Positions 47,900 to 54,471 are shown, counted from the first letter of the stretch. The stretch: 64,000 nucleotides of DNA from a virus (IMGVR_UViG_3300022213_000004), one strand, 5' to 3'. Numbers and translations are program-made. The notes: generated by a model not told the origin, from the letters alone.

Positions 47900-49021
47900 A
47901 TGCCTACCAAATCTAACATTATGACCGACCAAGCAATCTCCATTCTGAAGGAAAAGTTTGGCACCGAGTTTGGTGCTGATGCTGTCAAAGAAGTGGCAGA
48001 TGAACTGAATACTTCTTATGCGACTCTCTCCAAGTATCTGAATCAATACAAGGTGGGTCGTGGTAAATGGAATCTGGACCAAACTGTGCAAGACCTTGAA
48101 GAAACTTATGCTTCTCCTTCTGCCAATCCAGTAGCAATTATGGATAATGTAAAACAAAATCTTGTCCCCGAGAAGGATAGTATTTTTATTCCTTTTGGCA
48201 ACTTTACTGATGTTAAGAAAGTTGTTCAGTCTGGGATTTTTTATCCTGTATTCATCACTGGTCTCTCTGGTAATGGTAAAACTTTTAGCATTGAGCAATC
48301 TTGTGCTCAACTAAAACGAGAACTCATTCGTGTTAATATCACGATTGAGACAGACTCTGATGATTTGCTTGGTGGTTTCCGTCTTGTGAATGGGGAAACT
48401 GTGTGGCACAACGGTCCTGTGGTAGAAGCAATGGAACGTGGTGCTATCCTCCTGCTGGATGAGATTGACCTGGCATCTAATAAGATTATGTGTCTGCAAT
48501 CTATTCTTGAAGGAAAGGGTGTGTTCCTTAAGAAAATCGGCAAACACGTTCTTCCCAAGGCAGGTTTCAATGTGATTGCAACTGCAAACACCAAGGGTAA
48601 GGGTTCCGATGACGGTCGTTTTATCGGCACCAATGTTCTCAACGAGGCATTCCTGGAACGATTCCCCATCACGTTCGAGCAAGAGTATCCTACTGTCAGT
48701 GTTGAGACTAAAATCTTGACTAAGGTGGCAGAATCTCTTAAAATTCCTATGATTGGTGAGCATACTGATTTCATCAAACATCTTTGCACCTGGTCTGAGA
48801 TTATTCGTAAGACCTTCAACGATGGTGGTATTGATGAAGTCATTAGTACTCGTCGTCTGGTTCATATCATCAAGGCATATTCTATCTTCGGTAAGAAGGA
48901 CAAAGCAATCAAGGTTTGTCTGAATCGTTTTGATGATGAAACTAAATCAACTTTTGTTGAGTTGTATGATAAGATTGACGCAGAGTTTCAATCTTCCATT
49001 GACAAAGACCAAGTAAATTGA
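47900..49021 (+). CDS. cobS: CobS-like MoxR AAA+ ATPase
   Basis: GLSGNGKT, LLLDEID, ATANTKGKGSDDGRFIGTNVLNEAFLERF, ISTRRLVHI. Confidence 0.92.
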   Translation: MPTKSNIMTDQAISILKEKFGTEFGADAVKEVADELNTSYATLSKYLNQYKVGRGKWNLDQTVQDLEETYASPSANPVAIMDNVKQNLVPEKDSIFIPFGNFTDVKKVVQSGIFYPVFITGLSGNGKTFSIEQSCAQLKRELIRVNITIETDSDDLLGGFRLVNGETVWHNGPVVEAMERGAILLLDEIDLASNKIMCLQSILEGKGVFLKKIGKHVLPKAGFNVIATANTKGKGSDDGRFIGTNVLNEAFLERFPITFEQEYPTVSVETKILTKVAESLKIPMIGEHTDFIKHLCTWSEIIRKTFNDGGIDEVISTRRLVHIIKAYSIFGKKDKAIKVCLNRFDDETKSTFVELYDKIDAEFQSSIDKDQVN

Positions 49022-49027
49022 TAAAAT
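48999..49027 (+). promoter_or_regulatory. Sigma70-type promoter
   Basis: TTGACA, 17 nt, TAAAAT with TGn extension. Confidence 0.8.
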
Positions 49028-49029
49028 GT

Positions 49030-49056
49030 GAGGAGGTAAATGTGCCTCCTCTTTTT
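49030..49056 (+). terminator. Rho-independent terminator after cobS
   Basis: GAGGAGG...CCTCCTC followed by TTTTT. Confidence 0.75.
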
Positions 49057-49076
49057 GCCCTTTACTATGAAAAACA

Positions 49077-49646
49077 ATGTCTAATGAGTATCCGTATCAA
49101 ATCAATGATTCTGTTGGGAATAAATATGAAGTTTCTCAAGTGAATCCTGATGAGGGGACTGTAAAAGTTTCAAAAATATTTGGGGACACTGTAATTTCTA
49201 GTGGATCTGGAACTGATACAATTTATTTTGGTTCTACTCAACCATCTCAAGACTATTGGTATGAAGATGGAATTAGTCTAACTGGAAATGGTTTTTATGC
49301 TCCTGATACAATTTCTTTTAATGTGAAAATGCCTGAAGATACAAACAAAAATGGTTTTTGGAAGTATGAGGAAGACAAAACTCTAAAGCAAATAGAAGAG
49401 TATCTTGTTAGCACGTACAAATCTCACTATACTTCCGAACAGTCAAAAACTCAAACTCTGGATTTGATTGAAAGTATTGGTGATGCAGAACCATTCACTC
49501 GATCAAATGCTATCAAATACCTTTCTCGTTTTGGTAAGAAAAATGGAAAATCTAAACAGGATATTCTGAAAGCAATTCATTATTGTATTCTTCTGTATCA
49601 TTTTGCTGGACTTCACAAGAACACAACTGGACAATATAACTATTGA
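49077..49646 (+). CDS. DUF3310-like protein
   Basis: FWKYEEDKTL...HY...QTLDLIESIG...NAIKYLSRFGKK...DILKAIHY. Confidence 0.75.
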   Translation: MSNEYPYQINDSVGNKYEVSQVNPDEGTVKVSKIFGDTVISSGSGTDTIYFGSTQPSQDYWYEDGISLTGNGFYAPDTISFNVKMPEDTNKNGFWKYEEDKTLKQIEEYLVSTYKSHYTSEQSKTQTLDLIESIGDAEPFTRSNAIKYLSRFGKKNGKSKQDILKAIHYCILLYHFAGLHKNTTGQYNY

Positions 49647-49696
49647 TTATTATGAAAGATAATATTCTTCTAAATAATAATAGTTGAAGAATATTA

Positions 49697-50155
49697 ATGC
49701 CAAAAAATCAATACAAAGATAAAACAACAAAAGAATATCAGCAGGAATGGAAAGCCAAAAATAGAGAAAAACAGAGGCAACTTCAAAGAGACCATTATAA
49801 TAAGAAAAAAGAGTATTTGCTTGAAAATGTTGGAAGTGTCTGTGTATCTTGTGGTTCAACATCAAATATTGAATTTGATCACATTAGACCAAGAACATCT
49901 TCCGAAAAAGAGAAGCAAACTCGTCTCAGAACTGATAACACGGGAGGAAACATAGTATGGAATAAAAGACCATCTGCTATGAGTTGGGAATGTATTAAAA
50001 AAGAAATTCCTGATTTACAACCTCTTTGTAGAGATTGTCACCGAAAAAAATCCAACGCACAACTTGCTGCTGCTTGGGAACTTTTTTGCTCCTTAACTCT
50101 TAAGGAACAAACCAAACTTACAAATTTACAATATGGAAAAAATGAAATTCTCTGA
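49697..50155 (+). CDS. HNH homing endonuclease
   Basis: CVSCGSTSNIEFDHI...LQPLCRDCHRKK. Confidence 0.85.
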   Translation: MPKNQYKDKTTKEYQQEWKAKNREKQRQLQRDHYNKKKEYLLENVGSVCVSCGSTSNIEFDHIRPRTSSEKEKQTRLRTDNTGGNIVWNKRPSAMSWECIKKEIPDLQPLCRDCHRKKSNAQLAAAWELFCSLTLKEQTKLTNLQYGKNEIL

Positions 50156-50807
50156 CAAAACACTTACGCTTCTGAAGAATTTTTCTTCTATTAATCAAAG
50201 TATTCTATTCAAAAAAGGAAATCACTTGCGTAGTATTAGTGTTATGAAAAACATTCTTGCAGAAGCGACTATTGAAGAAGAACTGCCTAAGGATTTTGGT
50301 ATCTATGATTTGAACCAGTTTCTGAATGGTCTTAATCTTCATCAAAATGCTGAACTGGATTTTCGGAATGATGGTTATGTAGTTATTAAAGAAGGTCGGT
50401 CTCGTTCCAAATACTTCTTCGCAGATCCAAATGTAATCGTTACTCCTCCAGATAAATCCATCTCGCTTCCTTCTGAAGACGTTTGTTTCATCCTTGATAC
50501 CAAGGAACTTGATAAACTCCTTAAGGCTGCTGCTGTTTATCAACTTCCTGACCTGTCTGTGGTTGGTGAAGCAGGTGTGGTGAAACTGGTGGTTCGTGAT
50601 AAGAAGAATGATACATCGAACGATTTTTCTGTGGTAGTTGGTGAGACTGATGAAGTATTCACTTTTAACTTCAAGGTGGAGAACATCAAGATTATTCCTG
50701 GCAACTATGAGGTAGTGATCTCTTCTAAACTTTTGTCACGATTTAAGAATACTGGGTTTGACGTTACGTACTATATCGCGTTGGAACCGGACAGCACTTT
50801 TGGATGA
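50133..50807 (+). CDS. gp45: Sliding clamp gp45
   Basis: LLKNFSSINQSI, FGIYDLNQFL, YYIALEPDS; start at 50133 or 50142. Confidence 0.95.
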   Translation: MEKMKFSDKTLTLLKNFSSINQSILFKKGNHLRSISVMKNILAEATIEEELPKDFGIYDLNQFLNGLNLHQNAELDFRNDGYVVIKEGRSRSKYFFADPNVIVTPPDKSISLPSEDVCFILDTKELDKLLKAAAVYQLPDLSVVGEAGVVKLVVRDKKNDTSNDFSVVVGETDEVFTFNFKVENIKIIPGNYEVVISSKLLSRFKNTGFDVTYYIALEPDSTFG

Positions 50808-50836
50808 TAAAATACTATTGAGTTGAGGAACCTCCC

Positions 50837-51352
50837 ATCAATATCTTCGTTACTTCTCCCTTTCCTGCTGAGAGTGCCATCTGCCTCCCAGACAAGCACG
50901 TTGTCAAGATGCCCTTAGAGTGCTGTCAGATGCTCTCTATCGTGGCATCAGACAAGTGGGGACACGGGTACGGCACCCTCCCTAAGGCAGATGGAACCCC
51001 CTACAAGACCGAGAAAGGAGCATTCCGCAATCATCCCTGCACCAAGTGGGCACTGGAGAGTATCCATAATGCCTATTGGTTAATCAAGTGGGGATTGAAC
51101 TTGTCTGATGAATACTGCCTGCGGTATAATAAAACTCACTCCTGTTATAAGACCCTTGTGGATGCATACTATTTGTTTCCCAAGGGTAAGATTACAGAAG
51201 TGACTCCATTTGCTCGTGCTATGCCTGAGGAATGGAAGTTTGACGATACTATTGACACATTTGAAGCATACAAACGATACATTGCATCCAAACCCTGGGT
51301 TGCTGATAATTATCTTCGTATGCCGTCAAGACGACCCTCTTGGATAATATAA
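50837..51352 (+). CDS. Pyrimidine-dimer DNA glycosylase-like (DenV/Pyr_excise family) protein, probable ATC start
   Basis: In-frame (I)NIFVTSPFPAESAICLPDKHVVKMPLECCQMLS...HPCTKW...TPFARAMP; in-frame stop at 50819; GAGG 8 nt before the ATC. Confidence 0.75.
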   Translation: MNIFVTSPFPAESAICLPDKHVVKMPLECCQMLSIVASDKWGHGYGTLPKADGTPYKTEKGAFRNHPCTKWALESIHNAYWLIKWGLNLSDEYCLRYNKTHSCYKTLVDAYYLFPKGKITEVTPFARAMPEEWKFDDTIDTFEAYKRYIASKPWVADNYLRMPSRRPSWII

Positions 51353-51410
51353 ATAATGATGCCTGGTTTGTTCGCACTTTTCAGGTGGGAGAGTAGAAAT
51401 GCTCTCCCTT
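51348..51410 (+). ncRNA. Putative late small RNA (~50 nt) antisense to the start region of the downstream endonuclease
   Basis: TATAAATA 51348-55; stem GCCTG/CAGGT; loop GTTTGTTCGCA complementary to 51422-32; GAAA-loop hairpin GGGAGAG/CTCTCCC. Confidence 0.5.
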
Positions 51411-51420
51411 ATAAATACTA

Positions 51421-52023
51421 ATGCGAACAAACAACAGAGCAGAGATGTATTACACTTACGCCTATTTGCGTGAAGATGGAACTCCTTACTATATTGGTAA
51501 AGGTAAAGGAGACCGTGCATATAGAAAAGTTGGAAAACCTTGTGCTACTCCAAAAGATAAAAATAAAATAATACAACTCAAAACAAATCTTACAGAAGAA
51601 GAAGCATTCAATCACGAAAGATATATGATTTTTATCCTTGGTAGGAAAGATTTGGGAACTGGTATTTTATTAAACAAATCTGATGGTGGCGAAGGTAGAA
51701 GTGGATATGTTCCAACAGAAGAACTAAAAAGAAATCAAAGTAAGAGGATGAGTGGTGAAAATAATCCTATGTACGGTAAAAAAGGTGTTGAATGTCCTTG
51801 GTATGGGAGAAAACATAGTGAAGAAACAAAAAATAAAATTAGTAAATCTTTAACTGGCGAAAACCATAATTTTTATGGAAAAAAACATAAGCAAGAAACA
51901 AAAGAAAAAATGAGTGAAATTAAAAAAGGAGAAAAAAATAGTTTTTATGGAAGAAAACATACAGAAGAAAGTAGGAGAAAAATGAGGGAAGCAGCAAAAC
52001 GAAGAAAAGAAAAAAGTTCTTGA
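51421..52023 (+). CDS. GIY-YIG-like homing endonuclease with NUMOD3 repeats (paralog of 46721)
   Basis: YYTYAYLREDGTPYYIGKGKGDRAY, GILLNKSDGGEG, three YG(R/K)KH(S/K/T)(E/Q)E repeats; start at 51421 or 51445. Confidence 0.87.
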   Translation: MRTNNRAEMYYTYAYLREDGTPYYIGKGKGDRAYRKVGKPCATPKDKNKIIQLKTNLTEEEAFNHERYMIFILGRKDLGTGILLNKSDGGEGRSGYVPTEELKRNQSKRMSGENNPMYGKKGVECPWYGRKHSEETKNKISKSLTGENHNFYGKKHKQETKEKMSEIKKGEKNSFYGRKHTEESRRKMREAAKRRKEKSS

Positions 52024-52048
52024 TTTTTGTTGATTGCCGTGATAAACT
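52020..52048 (+). promoter_or_regulatory. Possible sigma70-type promoter
   Basis: TTGATT, 17 nt, TAAACT with TGn extension. Confidence 0.45.
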
Positions 52049-52068
52049 AAACACGATTACATTTTATT

Positions 52069-52686
52069 ATGAAAGACGTTGAAATTTTAAATGAAATTTT
52101 CACTGAAATGAATATTCTTCAGGAAGAATATAAACAAATAACATATTATTATGTTTATGCAATTTTTTTTCCAAATTGTAAATTTTACATAGGTTCTCGT
52201 CAATGTAACTGCATCCCCATTGAAGATAAAAAATACACTGGTTCTTATACGGATAAAAGTAATGGTGATGGTATAAAGGTCATTTTAAAAATTTTTTCCA
52301 ATGAAAATGAAATGACTTTTTATGAGACAAATTTAATTCAAAAATTTAAATCTTATTCAAATTGTATTAATGTAAATTCGTCCCCACGAGTTTGTAATAA
52401 TAATAAGTTGAATAGTAAAGTTTTTAAAACAACGGATTTAATGCAAATATATGGGTATTCAAGTTCAACAACACTGTCTAATTGGTGTATAATTGCCGAA
52501 ATTGATAGATTTAGACAAGGAAAATACTTTTATGTGAGTAATGAAGATAAATTAAAACTTGATGAGGTATCCAATTTTATTAAATCTGGATATACTTATG
52601 AGGATTACCTTAAAACTAAAGGTAAATCAAAGGAAGAAATTAAAAGCATTATTTCAAAGGTGAAAGGACTTAATTATGACAAGTGA
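52069..52686 (+). CDS. Putative GIY-YIG (Seg-like) endonuclease with C-terminal HTH-like region
   Basis: YYVYAIFFPNCKFYIGSR...YTGS...E...CIN; TTDLMQIYGYSSSTTLSNW. Confidence 0.65.
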   Translation: MKDVEILNEIFTEMNILQEEYKQITYYYVYAIFFPNCKFYIGSRQCNCIPIEDKKYTGSYTDKSNGDGIKVILKIFSNENEMTFYETNLIQKFKSYSNCINVNSSPRVCNNNKLNSKVFKTTDLMQIYGYSSSTTLSNWCIIAEIDRFRQGKYFYVSNEDKLKLDEVSNFIKSGYTYEDYLKTKGKSKEEIKSIISKVKGLNYDK

Positions 52687-52903
52687 ATTTCTTTTAAAGG
52701 CACAATTAGTTTGGGATGAGTTTTGTGGAGGACTTAAACAAGAACCAACAGAGGATATGAAAGAAGCACTTTGCGAAAGTATCACAGAGATTATGGTTCA
52801 ACTTACGCAATATCCAAATCCGCAAGATTCATATTATTCTATTATTGATGTAAAGGAACTTTCTAAATTGAGAGATGAATTGGAGAAACTGGTGGATGAG
52901 TAA
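52676..52903 (+). CDS. Hypothetical protein
   Basis: ORF with AAGGA SD; begins MTSEFL. Confidence 0.6.
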   Translation: MTSEFLLKAQLVWDEFCGGLKQEPTEDMKEALCESITEIMVQLTQYPNPQDSYYSIIDVKELSKLRDELEKLVDE

Positions 52904-52962
52904 TCTTGAATAAGTGTAAATAACTCATTTACTAAATAGTATTATACTACGAGGTTTAGTAA

Positions 52963-53496
52963 ATGAGTTGCGTTTATCAAATAAGAAACAAAATAACAGG
53001 AGAAAATTACATAGGTTCTACTGAAAAGAATTATATGCTTAGGTTTGCTAAACATATAACTATGTGTAATAGTAATAAAATGGATTGTCCTAAACTTTAT
53101 GAAAATTTTTTAAAGTATGGGTATCATAATTTTACTATTGAAGTCGTAAAGTGGATACACGAAGACGAAGACCTCAAAAAAGTAGAACAAGAATATTGTG
53201 AATGGTTAAACCCTTCTTTAAATTCTTTATGGGGAACAAAACATACCAAAGATTCTATTGATAAAATGCGTAAGTCGCAAAGAGAATATTGGTCTAAAAA
53301 TTCTCATCCAAGAAAAGGAGTTCCTTTTACTGAGGAACATAAAAATAATCTTTCAAAATCTATGGGTAAAAAGTGTTATGTTGATGGAGTAGTTTATGAA
53401 TCTGTGAAAGAATGTGCTAAAATACTTGGTATCCATAGGGATACTGCAAGTTGGAGAATGAGAAGTAAATCATTTCCAAATTACTATTACCTTTGA
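52963..53496 (+). CDS. GIY-YIG homing endonuclease with NUMOD3/NUMOD1 C-terminus
   Basis: CVYQIRNKITGENYIGST...RFAKH...KYGYHNFTIEV...EQEY; HTKDSIDKMR; DGVVYESVKECAKILGI. Confidence 0.88.
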   Translation: MSCVYQIRNKITGENYIGSTEKNYMLRFAKHITMCNSNKMDCPKLYENFLKYGYHNFTIEVVKWIHEDEDLKKVEQEYCEWLNPSLNSLWGTKHTKDSIDKMRKSQREYWSKNSHPRKGVPFTEEHKNNLSKSMGKKCYVDGVVYESVKECAKILGIHRDTASWRMRSKSFPNYYYL

Positions 53497-53511
53497 TTTT
53501 TATTTTTTGAT

Positions 53512-54471
53512 ATGGAAATTACTGATACTAAACCATTCTTGTGGGTGGAAAAGTGGGCACCAGAATCTGTTGATGATTTGATTCTTACTAAAAGTGTAAA
53601 GGAGTTTTTCACTAATGTAGTAAGTGAAGGGCAACTGAATCAAAATCTTATCTTACAAGGTTCTCAGGGTTGTGGTAAAACTCAAACTATTAAAACTCTC
53701 TGTAAGATTACAAAACAGGATGTTTTGTTTTTGAATGGTTCTTCTGAGGGTAGATATTTGGATACTATTCGCAATCAAGTCATTAATTTTGGAACTACTG
53801 TTTCTATGTTTAATGATAAGAAAAAGGTAGTGTTCTTTGATGAGTTTGATGGGACAACTAATGATGTAATGCTTTGTCTTCGTGGAGTAATTGAGCAACT
53901 TCACAATAATGTATGCTTCATTTTTACTTGTAATAATCTTAATAAAATTATTGAACCAATTCAATCAAGGTGTGTTGTTCTTAAATATACTCCCATTCCA
54001 AAGAATGAAAAACCTGAGTTGATGGTATCCATTTTCAATAGAATGTCTCACATTCTTGACGAGGAAAATATTGAATATGATAAAAAAGTTGTAGCAGAAC
54101 TCATCAAAAACTATTTTCCAGATACAAGGCAACTCCTCAATACTCTTCAACGATATTCTACAGGGGGAAAAATTGACACGGGCATTCTTGCATCTTTCTC
54201 AGACATCTCTGTAAATGAACTCATTAAAAATCTCAAGGATAAAAACTTTCCTGAAGTCCGAAAGTGGGTGGTCTCCAACTTGGACAACGATGCTAGCAGT
54301 CTACTTCGCAGGATTTATGACGCCTGTTATGATTGCCTTTCACCCCAATCTATCCCCGCTGCCGTTCTTGTTATTGCTAAGTATCAATACCAATGTGCGT
54401 TCGTGGCTGACCAAGAAATAAATCTTCTTGCTGCTCTTACAGAAATAATGATAGAATGTGAGTTTCGTTGA
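53512..54471 (+). CDS. gp44: Clamp loader large subunit gp44
   Basis: FLWVEKW, Walker A GSQGCGKT, DEFD, FIFTCN, SRC motif, AFVADQEINLLA. Confidence 0.92.
   Translation: MEITDTKPFLWVEKWAPESVDDLILTKSVKEFFTNVVSEGQLNQNLILQGSQGCGKTQTIKTLCKITKQDVLFLNGSSEGRYLDTIRNQVINFGTTVSMFNDKKKVVFFDEFDGTTNDVMLCLRGVIEQLHNNVCFIFTCNNLNKIIEPIQSRCVVLKYTPIPKNEKPELMVSIFNRMSHILDEENIEYDKKVVAELIKNYFPDTRQLLNTLQRYSTGGKIDTGILASFSDISVNELIKNLKDKNFPEVRKWVVSNLDNDASSLLRRIYDACYDCLSPQSIPAAVLVIAKYQYQCAFVADQEINLLAALTEIMIECEFR

Follow-up and report, generated by a model that had tools for sequence, protein, structure and literature searches.

The viral sequence IMGVR_UViG_3300022213_000004 (64,000 nt, referred to below as the window, with coordinates counted from its first nucleotide) carries a cassette between a DenV-like gene and a free-standing homing endonuclease gene. 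We regard this cassette, with a probability of about 0.72, as a self-contained mobile unit of expression control that travels with the free-standing nuclease genes of T4-like cyanophages and makes read-through RNA self-silencing. Its parts follow in the order (N)ATAAATA, 5 nt, a stem-loop of 5–8 bp (SL1), a GC-rich hairpin, TATAAATA, 4–5 nt, a complement of the SL1 loop, a short purine-rich stretch and ATG. The upstream and downstream late-promoter motifs are called promoter 1 (P1) and promoter 2 (P2) in the following. The window phage is a T4-like cyanomyovirus whose top DNA matches belong to Kyanoviridae with about 70% identity, and in a DNA similarity search the region was covered by no cultured phage.

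The two TATAAATA motifs of the cassette are spaced by 62 nt (Table 1). Late transcripts of T4 start about 6 nt after the promoter motif, and by this rule the P2 transcript should start near 51423; the spacing of P1 would put its predicted transcript start at the first base of SL1 (51361). The loop of SL1 holds an 11-mer, 51366–51376, that is the exact reverse complement of 51422–51432. A preliminary description of the locus had listed both promoter motifs, the stem that displays the 11-mer, the downstream complement and a GAAA-capped hairpin with a short T-run, and all of these are present, the hairpin having 9 bp and being followed by two T. The complementarity goes further than described, to 17 bp ending at position -4 of the start codon. 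The same description let the 11-mer cover the start codon of the gene, which has to be corrected, as the real start is the ATG at 51445, where both DNA and protein similarity to homologues begins; another ATG in the same frame, at 51421, lacks conservation and precedes the predicted start of the P2 transcript. TATAAATA is not enriched in the whole window (10 found, 7.7 expected), and a single 11-nt inverted repeat should by our own rough estimate occur by chance about once per window, so the case for the cassette rests on folding and conservation. No Rfam 15 model overlapped 51348–51450 in a cmscan of 49000–54000 with E values of up to 10 allowed, and a covariance model of the cassette finds one copy in the window.

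The minimum free energy (MFE) structure of an RNA with both arms pairs 51360–51376 with 51422–51441 in a long-range helix of 17 bp with two small bulges (51422–51432 with 51366–51376, 51435–51437 with 51363–51365, and 51439–51441 with 51360–51362), which encloses the hairpin and P2. Folds with both arms reach -38 kcal/mol (z -5.1) and -41.1 kcal/mol (z -6.35), and none of 200 shuffles was as good. Counted from the AUG at 51445, the helix extends over positions -23 to -4, nearly the whole 22-nt leader, and leaves the AUG itself uncovered. RNA from P1 to the hairpin (51361–51411) folds into SL1 and the hairpin with -22.8 kcal/mol (z -3.9). The predicted P2 transcript, folded as 51423–51475, has -6.9 kcal/mol (z -0.6), and its first 16 nt are unpaired in the MFE structure and its first 33 nt in the centroid. 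SL1 and the long-range helix compete for the same 5' strand and are mutually exclusive.

A protein-guided search of IMG/VR gave 444 relatives of the endonuclease, and most of the 80 encoding loci that were covered have the same upstream architecture with a different sequence. An independent pattern scan of IMG/VR, in which only P1, the SL1 stem and P2 were specified and the 3' arm was left out, found at least 120 stretches in uncultured T4-like cyanophages, with 99 usable matches and 56 different arm sequences. The idea that the nuclease gene has a dedicated RNA and promoter module of its own is in line with this conservation, which extends to more than 100 related loci. P2 reads ATAAATA in all of 48 distinct cassettes, preceded by T in 44. 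At P1 the positions 2–8 (ATAAATA) are kept in 43–48 of the 48, position 1 is free, and the spacing to SL1 is fixed at 5 nt.

Covariation between the loop and the downstream complement had been proposed as a check, and it was found in two sets, a MAFFT alignment of 38 distinct cassettes and a model-based alignment of 48. In the former, 91.8% of the cells of the long-range helix are paired, 15 of 17 pairs have changed on both sides, and none of 500 shuffles was as high; in the latter, the values are 93.7% and 15 of 16 pairs with compensatory changes. When the partner strand is slid, pairing falls to 42–59% (42–52% in the 38-cassette set). P2 lies between the helix strands in all aligned cassettes. 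Among the 99 matches of the pattern scan, the cognate duplex has -15 kcal/mol or lower in 97%, with a mean of -23.4 kcal/mol (16–17 bp) against -10.2 kcal/mol for non-cognate arms, and the 3' arm starts 4–5 nt after P2 in 82.

SL1 is under a constraint of its own. It is predicted in 43/43 distinct type-A cassettes when the interval between P1 and P2 is folded alone, with the hairpin directly after it; 88.9% of its cells are paired, and three of its five pairs have changed on both sides. The third pair is C-G in 44 and U-A in 6 cases and the fifth is G-C in 39 and A-U or U-A in 4, counted from per-sequence folds and a second model; a MAFFT alignment of isolated SL1 segments did not anchor the stem ends. 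The same bases of the 5' strand covary with their distal partners in the long-range helix (G-C 26 against A-U 17, and C-G 40 against U-A 6). Since two exclusive pairings of one strand are both under selection, the RNA should exist in two states or as two species.

Judging from its pattern of variation, the fold is selected on the sense strand, which folds better than its complement in 45/48 and 96/99 cassettes, by a mean of 5.5–6.5 kcal/mol. For the long-range duplex, the plus strand gives the more stable version 81 times and the minus strand 17 times. A total of 89 G-U pairs are predicted in the sense-strand duplexes, and in the helix of the aligned set there are 21 G-U against 9 A-C. Read on the plus strand, the hairpins are capped by GAAA or UUCG, and the minus strand contains no TATAAATA within the cassette. 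It is therefore very improbable that the conserved fold belongs to an RNA of the opposite strand. A similarly small chance is given to the inverted repeat acting as DNA, be it by serving a dimeric repressor as operator or by forming a cruciform around P2, and to the RNA acting as a cofactor or guide of the nuclease. The endonuclease I-TevI does repress its own late promoter through an overlapping operator (PMC2988022), but the arms of the cassette have no conserved sequence (all 56 are different), and their G-U pairs and conserved bulges point to RNA. The suggestion that the RNA is a partner of the nuclease, one of three options in the preliminary description, is hard to reconcile with a cassette that heads nucleases of unrelated families and whose variable segment matches its own leader and not a target site.

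The nucleases behind the cassette include classic GIY-YIG, HNH and HNH_3 enzymes, several NUMOD3 families and one TnpB, and the genes that precede it are DenV, PsbA, 2OG-Fe(II) oxygenases, a transaldolase-like gene and others. Sequence similarity stops upstream of P1, indicating that P1 is the left edge of a mobile unit. The TnpB-like gene, which encodes 398 amino acids (HTH_OrfB_IS605, OrfB_IS605 and Cas12f1-like TNB domains), lies behind a cassette on a 243-kb viral contig (L125:3848-5151), which shows that the control module also heads genes other than those of homing endonucleases. The cultured phage S-SRM01 (MW015081) has six cassettes, each heading a nuclease gene, and these six genes represent about five types. 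Solitary decaying cassettes are seen in L183:4141-4290 and, on the minus strand, in L135; P1, SL1 and P2 are intact, the hairpin is degenerate, the 3' arm is absent and a non-nuclease gene follows, and they are probably remnants left after loss of the endonuclease gene.

In the mechanism that we propose, RNA entering from upstream, as early or middle read-through from the DenV-like gene or as P1 transcript, would first fold SL1 and the GC-rich hairpin. The hairpin would halt some of the polymerases, weakly in the subfamily of the window and more strongly in others. If the RNA continues, the segment just 3' of P2 would pair with the SL1 loop and then invade the SL1 stem, and the resulting helix of 16–17 bp would bury the leader, starting at its first base and ending at -4 relative to the AUG, and thereby prevent translation of the nuclease. 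Late in infection a gp55-type polymerase would start at P2, inside the helix, giving an mRNA without the 5' strand, whose short leader is open and allows translation. P1 would add a negative input, either an RNA of about 50–65 nt consisting of SL1 plus the hairpin or a self-silenced read-through RNA, and would lower nuclease output through trans antisense pairing, interference with P2 or formation of inert mRNA. The cis core of this mechanism is probable. A cis switch on read-through RNA was also among the options named earlier and is the best supported of the three, as the 17-bp helix is the MFE structure of any RNA with both arms and as the arms also occur without an upstream promoter.

The latter is the case in a second cassette type, where the loop of a long terminator-like hairpin contains the 5' arm, a late-promoter motif is missing upstream, and the 3' arm extends as far as the ATG. 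The cognate duplexes of this type have -21 to -30 kcal/mol, and the arms covary among its members and flank TATAAATA. It precedes genes of the same endonuclease family in nine loci (L019, L023, L052, L058, L059, L061, L062, L066 and L078, some 90 nt upstream of position 1501 or of the start of the match). What the two types have in common, and hence the core, is a late promoter between complementary arms, the 5' one of which is displayed in a loop.

Several points weigh against this mechanism as described. The transcript starts are placed by the T4 rule and termination is judged by shape alone. In the window the hairpin is followed by only two T before P2 and by 4 T within 8 nt, and it is not picked up by a simple terminator scan, in which a GC-rich stem and a short loop must be followed by at least 5 U in 8 nt. 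In other subfamilies the GC core of the hairpin leads into a U-rich tract of about 7 nt, and a count of U after the MFE stem underestimates such tracts, because an upstream A-tract pairs with them. We speculate that a weak hairpin might be tolerated or even favoured in the window because of the essential gp44 further downstream. A clear Shine-Dalgarno sequence is missing from the leader, and masking would then mean burial of the whole leader and not of a defined site. Many cassettes are related by descent, so the cell counts of the covariation sets overstate the number of independent events. Phages Syn9, S-PM2, P-HM2, P-SSM2 and P-TIM68, for which transcriptomes have been published, all lack the cassette, as does S-SCSM2R. 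Finally, P1 and the SL1 stem are dispensable in a purely cis model. Both are nevertheless conserved, and something beyond the T4 scheme is therefore to be expected.

P1 is likely to be a working promoter, with somewhat less assurance than for the cis core. It is unlikely that it is not, and that the cassette consists only of a terminator and a late-promoter-in-hairpin mask of the T4 type, with the ATAAATA at the left edge as a boundary feature, be it an AT-rich stretch, a source of stop codons for the gene that was invaded or a trace of recombination. Consistent with such a boundary, the motif provides the stop codon of the DenV-like gene in the window and in its relatives, through two different TAA triplets; its first base is free, unlike that of P2, and the lack of enrichment of TATAAATA in the window fits as well. 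However, the motif blocks two reading frames only, and both the motif and its 5-nt spacing persist at sites where the preceding gene stops far short of it, as behind a psbA gene with its own terminator (L027). The P1 consensus is also an exact match to NATAAATA, the reported late promoter of cyanophages (PMC2984593).

With a working P1, the main function of the cassette could conceivably lie in trans, which we hold to be the less probable case. P1 and the hairpin would then produce an RNA of 50–65 nt that starts to pair with the free 5' end of the P2 mRNA through its SL1 loop and goes on to a 17-bp duplex that blocks ribosome binding, as a same-strand analogue of RNA-OUT and RNA-IN of IS10, and nuclease output would be damped as the genome copy number rises; such an activity is compatible with control in cis. 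The antisense RNA of IS10 pairs through its 5' part with the translation initiation region of the transposase mRNA and blocks ribosome binding, an effect that is stronger at higher copy number (PMC5006887). The fixed position of P1 would let the RNA start flush with the SL1 stem, P1 is the 5' boundary of the cassette in every genomic context, and the limits of the helix nearly coincide with both predicted transcript starts. SL1 shows the arm in its loop and is maintained by compensatory changes, and a loop-displayed complement to the 5' end and start region of the P2 mRNA, kept by covariation, is one trait that the cassette shares with an IS10-like antisense RNA. In the window the trans duplex of the two arms would have -22 kcal/mol, and the six copies of S-SRM01 cross-pair poorly (-4 to -16 kcal/mol, against -21 to -27 kcal/mol for cognate pairs).

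On the other side, the small RNA is known as a prediction only, the U-tract is weak in the subfamily of the window, and orthogonal arms are expected from independent descent too. The second cassette type keeps the arms without the upstream promoter, so that the shared function is independent of P1, and P1 is lost in one copy of the cassette (L030). Both promoters should also be served by the same late machinery, which makes the regulatory gain less than obvious. A physiologically relevant trans effect is doubtful, and a two-promoter antisense circuit on one strand, in which the SL1 loop is an address, free to evolve, that directs the RNA to the 5' end of the P2 mRNA next to it, can be put forward only tentatively. 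If it were true, each selfish nuclease would have its own orthogonal RNA brake (six addresses in S-SRM01) that tightens with late genome copy number.

The resemblance to IS10/Tn10, a stem-loop RNA acting against the 5' end of the mRNA for the enzyme of a selfish element, depends on this trans activity. RNA-OUT comes from the opposite strand and is a perfect complement of 35 nt, whereas the cassette has a same-strand inverted repeat of 11–17 nt upstream of the target promoter, and its RNA is predicted. An analogy to type I toxin-antitoxin systems, also made in the preliminary description, holds for the antisense pairing, as in both cases a short RNA is complementary to the start region of an adjacent and potentially harmful gene. 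It does not go further than this, since the downstream gene encodes a NUMOD3 endonuclease of 192 amino acids and not a small hydrophobic membrane peptide, and the setting is that of a lytic phage.

The closest known systems are the masks described for I-TevI, where the effect has been shown, and for I-TevII, I-TevIII, segB and mobE of phage Aeh1, in which early or middle RNA hides the ribosome binding site and an internal late promoter escapes this; the T4 late genes e and soc have the same masks with a late promoter in a hairpin (PMC2988022). Like the cassette, the T-even and Aeh1 masks have TATAAATA between the strands of an RNA helix and belong to selfish nucleases of T4-like phages. Their helix lies over the translation start region and their short late transcript is without the 5' strand; for the cassette such a transcript is predicted, and its helix would hide most of the leader. 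Unlike them, the helix of the cassette is long-range, with at least 45 nt between the arms, and encloses a terminator-like hairpin; its 5' strand is first held in a covarying stem-loop of its own; a second conserved late promoter lies 5 nt upstream of SL1; and the cassette is portable among many unrelated nuclease families and masks no defined Shine-Dalgarno sequence. The earlier judgement that the arrangement is more elaborate than the I-TevI hairpin agrees with the nested hairpin, the second conserved promoter and the two competing helices.

Hairpins were reported by Dassa et al. (2009) in 15 of 16 5' untranslated regions of free-standing endonuclease genes from fractured-gene loci of an ocean metagenome, and interpreted by analogy with mobE of Aeh1 (PMC2677866). 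These loci are likewise marine and phage-like and encode GIY-YIG as well as other nucleases; their hairpins have an embedded TATAAATA, and two conserved motifs are complementary to one another. The hairpins are probably the same element as the cassette or a sister of it. The text of the paper speaks of a regulatory hairpin only, with no mention of an upstream promoter, a competing stem-loop, a nested terminator or covariation statistics (PMC2677866). In our literature search, no account was found of the second promoter further upstream, of the stem-loop that competes with the helix, of the hairpin nested in it, of the covariation or of the link to TnpB.

The endonuclease gene behind the cassette of the window encodes three NUMOD3 repeats and an N-terminal motif that by eye resembles GIY-YIG. 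The Pfam profile is NUMOD3 alone, and GIY-YIG proteins in PDB match residues 3–39 only, and weakly (E 0.2); a further weak PDB match is to the DNA-binding region of I-TevI. Two other reading frames at the cassette were discarded, a frame of 21 codons from 51356, whose ATG is not conserved and is located upstream of the predicted P1 start, and a minus-strand frame of 64 amino acids (51326–51520), which is a mechanical open reading frame (ORF) with a pattern of variation that fits RNA pairing.

Table 1. Features of the cassette and of the surrounding genes in the window.
Feature	Coordinates	Strand	Basis
gp45 sliding clamp	50133–50807		
DenV-like Pyr_excise core gene, upstream of the cassette	50909–51352	+	Pfam PF03013, E 1.8e-7
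P1, late-promoter motif TATAAATA; family consensus NATAAATA	51348–51355	+	
SL1, 5-bp stem 51361–51365/51382–51386 (one G-U), 16-nt loop holding the 5' arm 51366–51376	51361–51386	+	MFE of 51361–51411
GC-rich 9-bp hairpin, GAAA loop, terminator-like	51387–51408	+	
P2, late promoter TATAAATA, enclosed by the long-range helix	51410–51417	+	
3' strand of the long-range helix	51422–51441	+	MFE; compensatory changes
Predicted 22-nt leader of the P2 mRNA, A-rich, unstructured without the 5' arm	51423–51444	+	
Free-standing homing endonuclease gene, 192 amino acids	51445–52023	+	Pfam NUMOD3, E 7e-32; PHROG 314 'homing endonuclease', E 7e-16
Three endonuclease-like ORFs and a small ORF	51445–53496		
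gp44 clamp loader	from 53512		

The stop codon of the DenV-like gene is located inside P1, and the cassette thus starts exactly at the end of that gene. In phage S-SCSM2R, which has no homing endonuclease gene at this site, the DenV-like homologue is followed by 6 nt and then gp44, and by comparison with such relatives about 2.15 kb has been inserted in the window between the DenV-like gene and gp44. The inserted genes have 26–32% GC, against 33–41% in the neighbouring core genes gp45 and gp44. The DenV-like gene (50800–51400) has 44–50% GC, and its 3' end is near-identical across many contigs that carry the cassette, which may reflect co-conversion of flanking DNA at homing. Its frame is open and homologous for 24 codons upstream of the first ATG at 50909, with ATC at 50837–50839 where relatives start with ATG, and the gene may have a non-canonical start or encode an N-terminally shortened protein.

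The insertion at the DenV-gp44 junction consists of three endonuclease-like ORFs in tandem (51445–52023, 52069–52686 and 52963–53496) and an ORF of 75 amino acids, and the cassette heads the first of the three only. The second has no Pfam or PHROG match, and its N-terminus looks by eye like that of a cassette-headed NUMOD3 family. The third, a GIY-YIG gene with its ATG at 52963, has another mask, a perfect hairpin of 14–15 bp (52922–52935/52955–52968; -22.2 kcal/mol, z -5.0) that holds the start codon; in this region (52918–52972) a late-promoter-like GTAAATA is found just 5' of the 5' arm, not within the hairpin. An HNH endonuclease ORF without the cassette (49697–50155) is located between a DUF3310 gene and gp45, with an overlap of 23 nt with the start of gp45.

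By comparative sequence evidence the cassette is a known kind of control with added parts, and it is real, widespread and well supported. Homing endonucleases are abundant in T4-like phages, and how they are restrained is known in detail only for a few genes of Escherichia coli and Aeromonas phages. The cyanophages of marine and freshwater habitats have one portable and highly conserved cassette for many unrelated nucleases, TnpB included, and because one cassette heads so many unrelated nucleases, regulatory modules and nuclease genes appear to be shuffled as separate parts. With more than 50 variants of the arms and two exclusive helices that are both selected, the cassettes also form a large natural set of co-evolving RNA pairs, which is suited to the study of how RNA switches evolve and is a possible source of orthogonal leader and anti-leader pairs. 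The conserved extra late promoter, P1, points to a layer of control that is absent from descriptions of the T4 paradigm.

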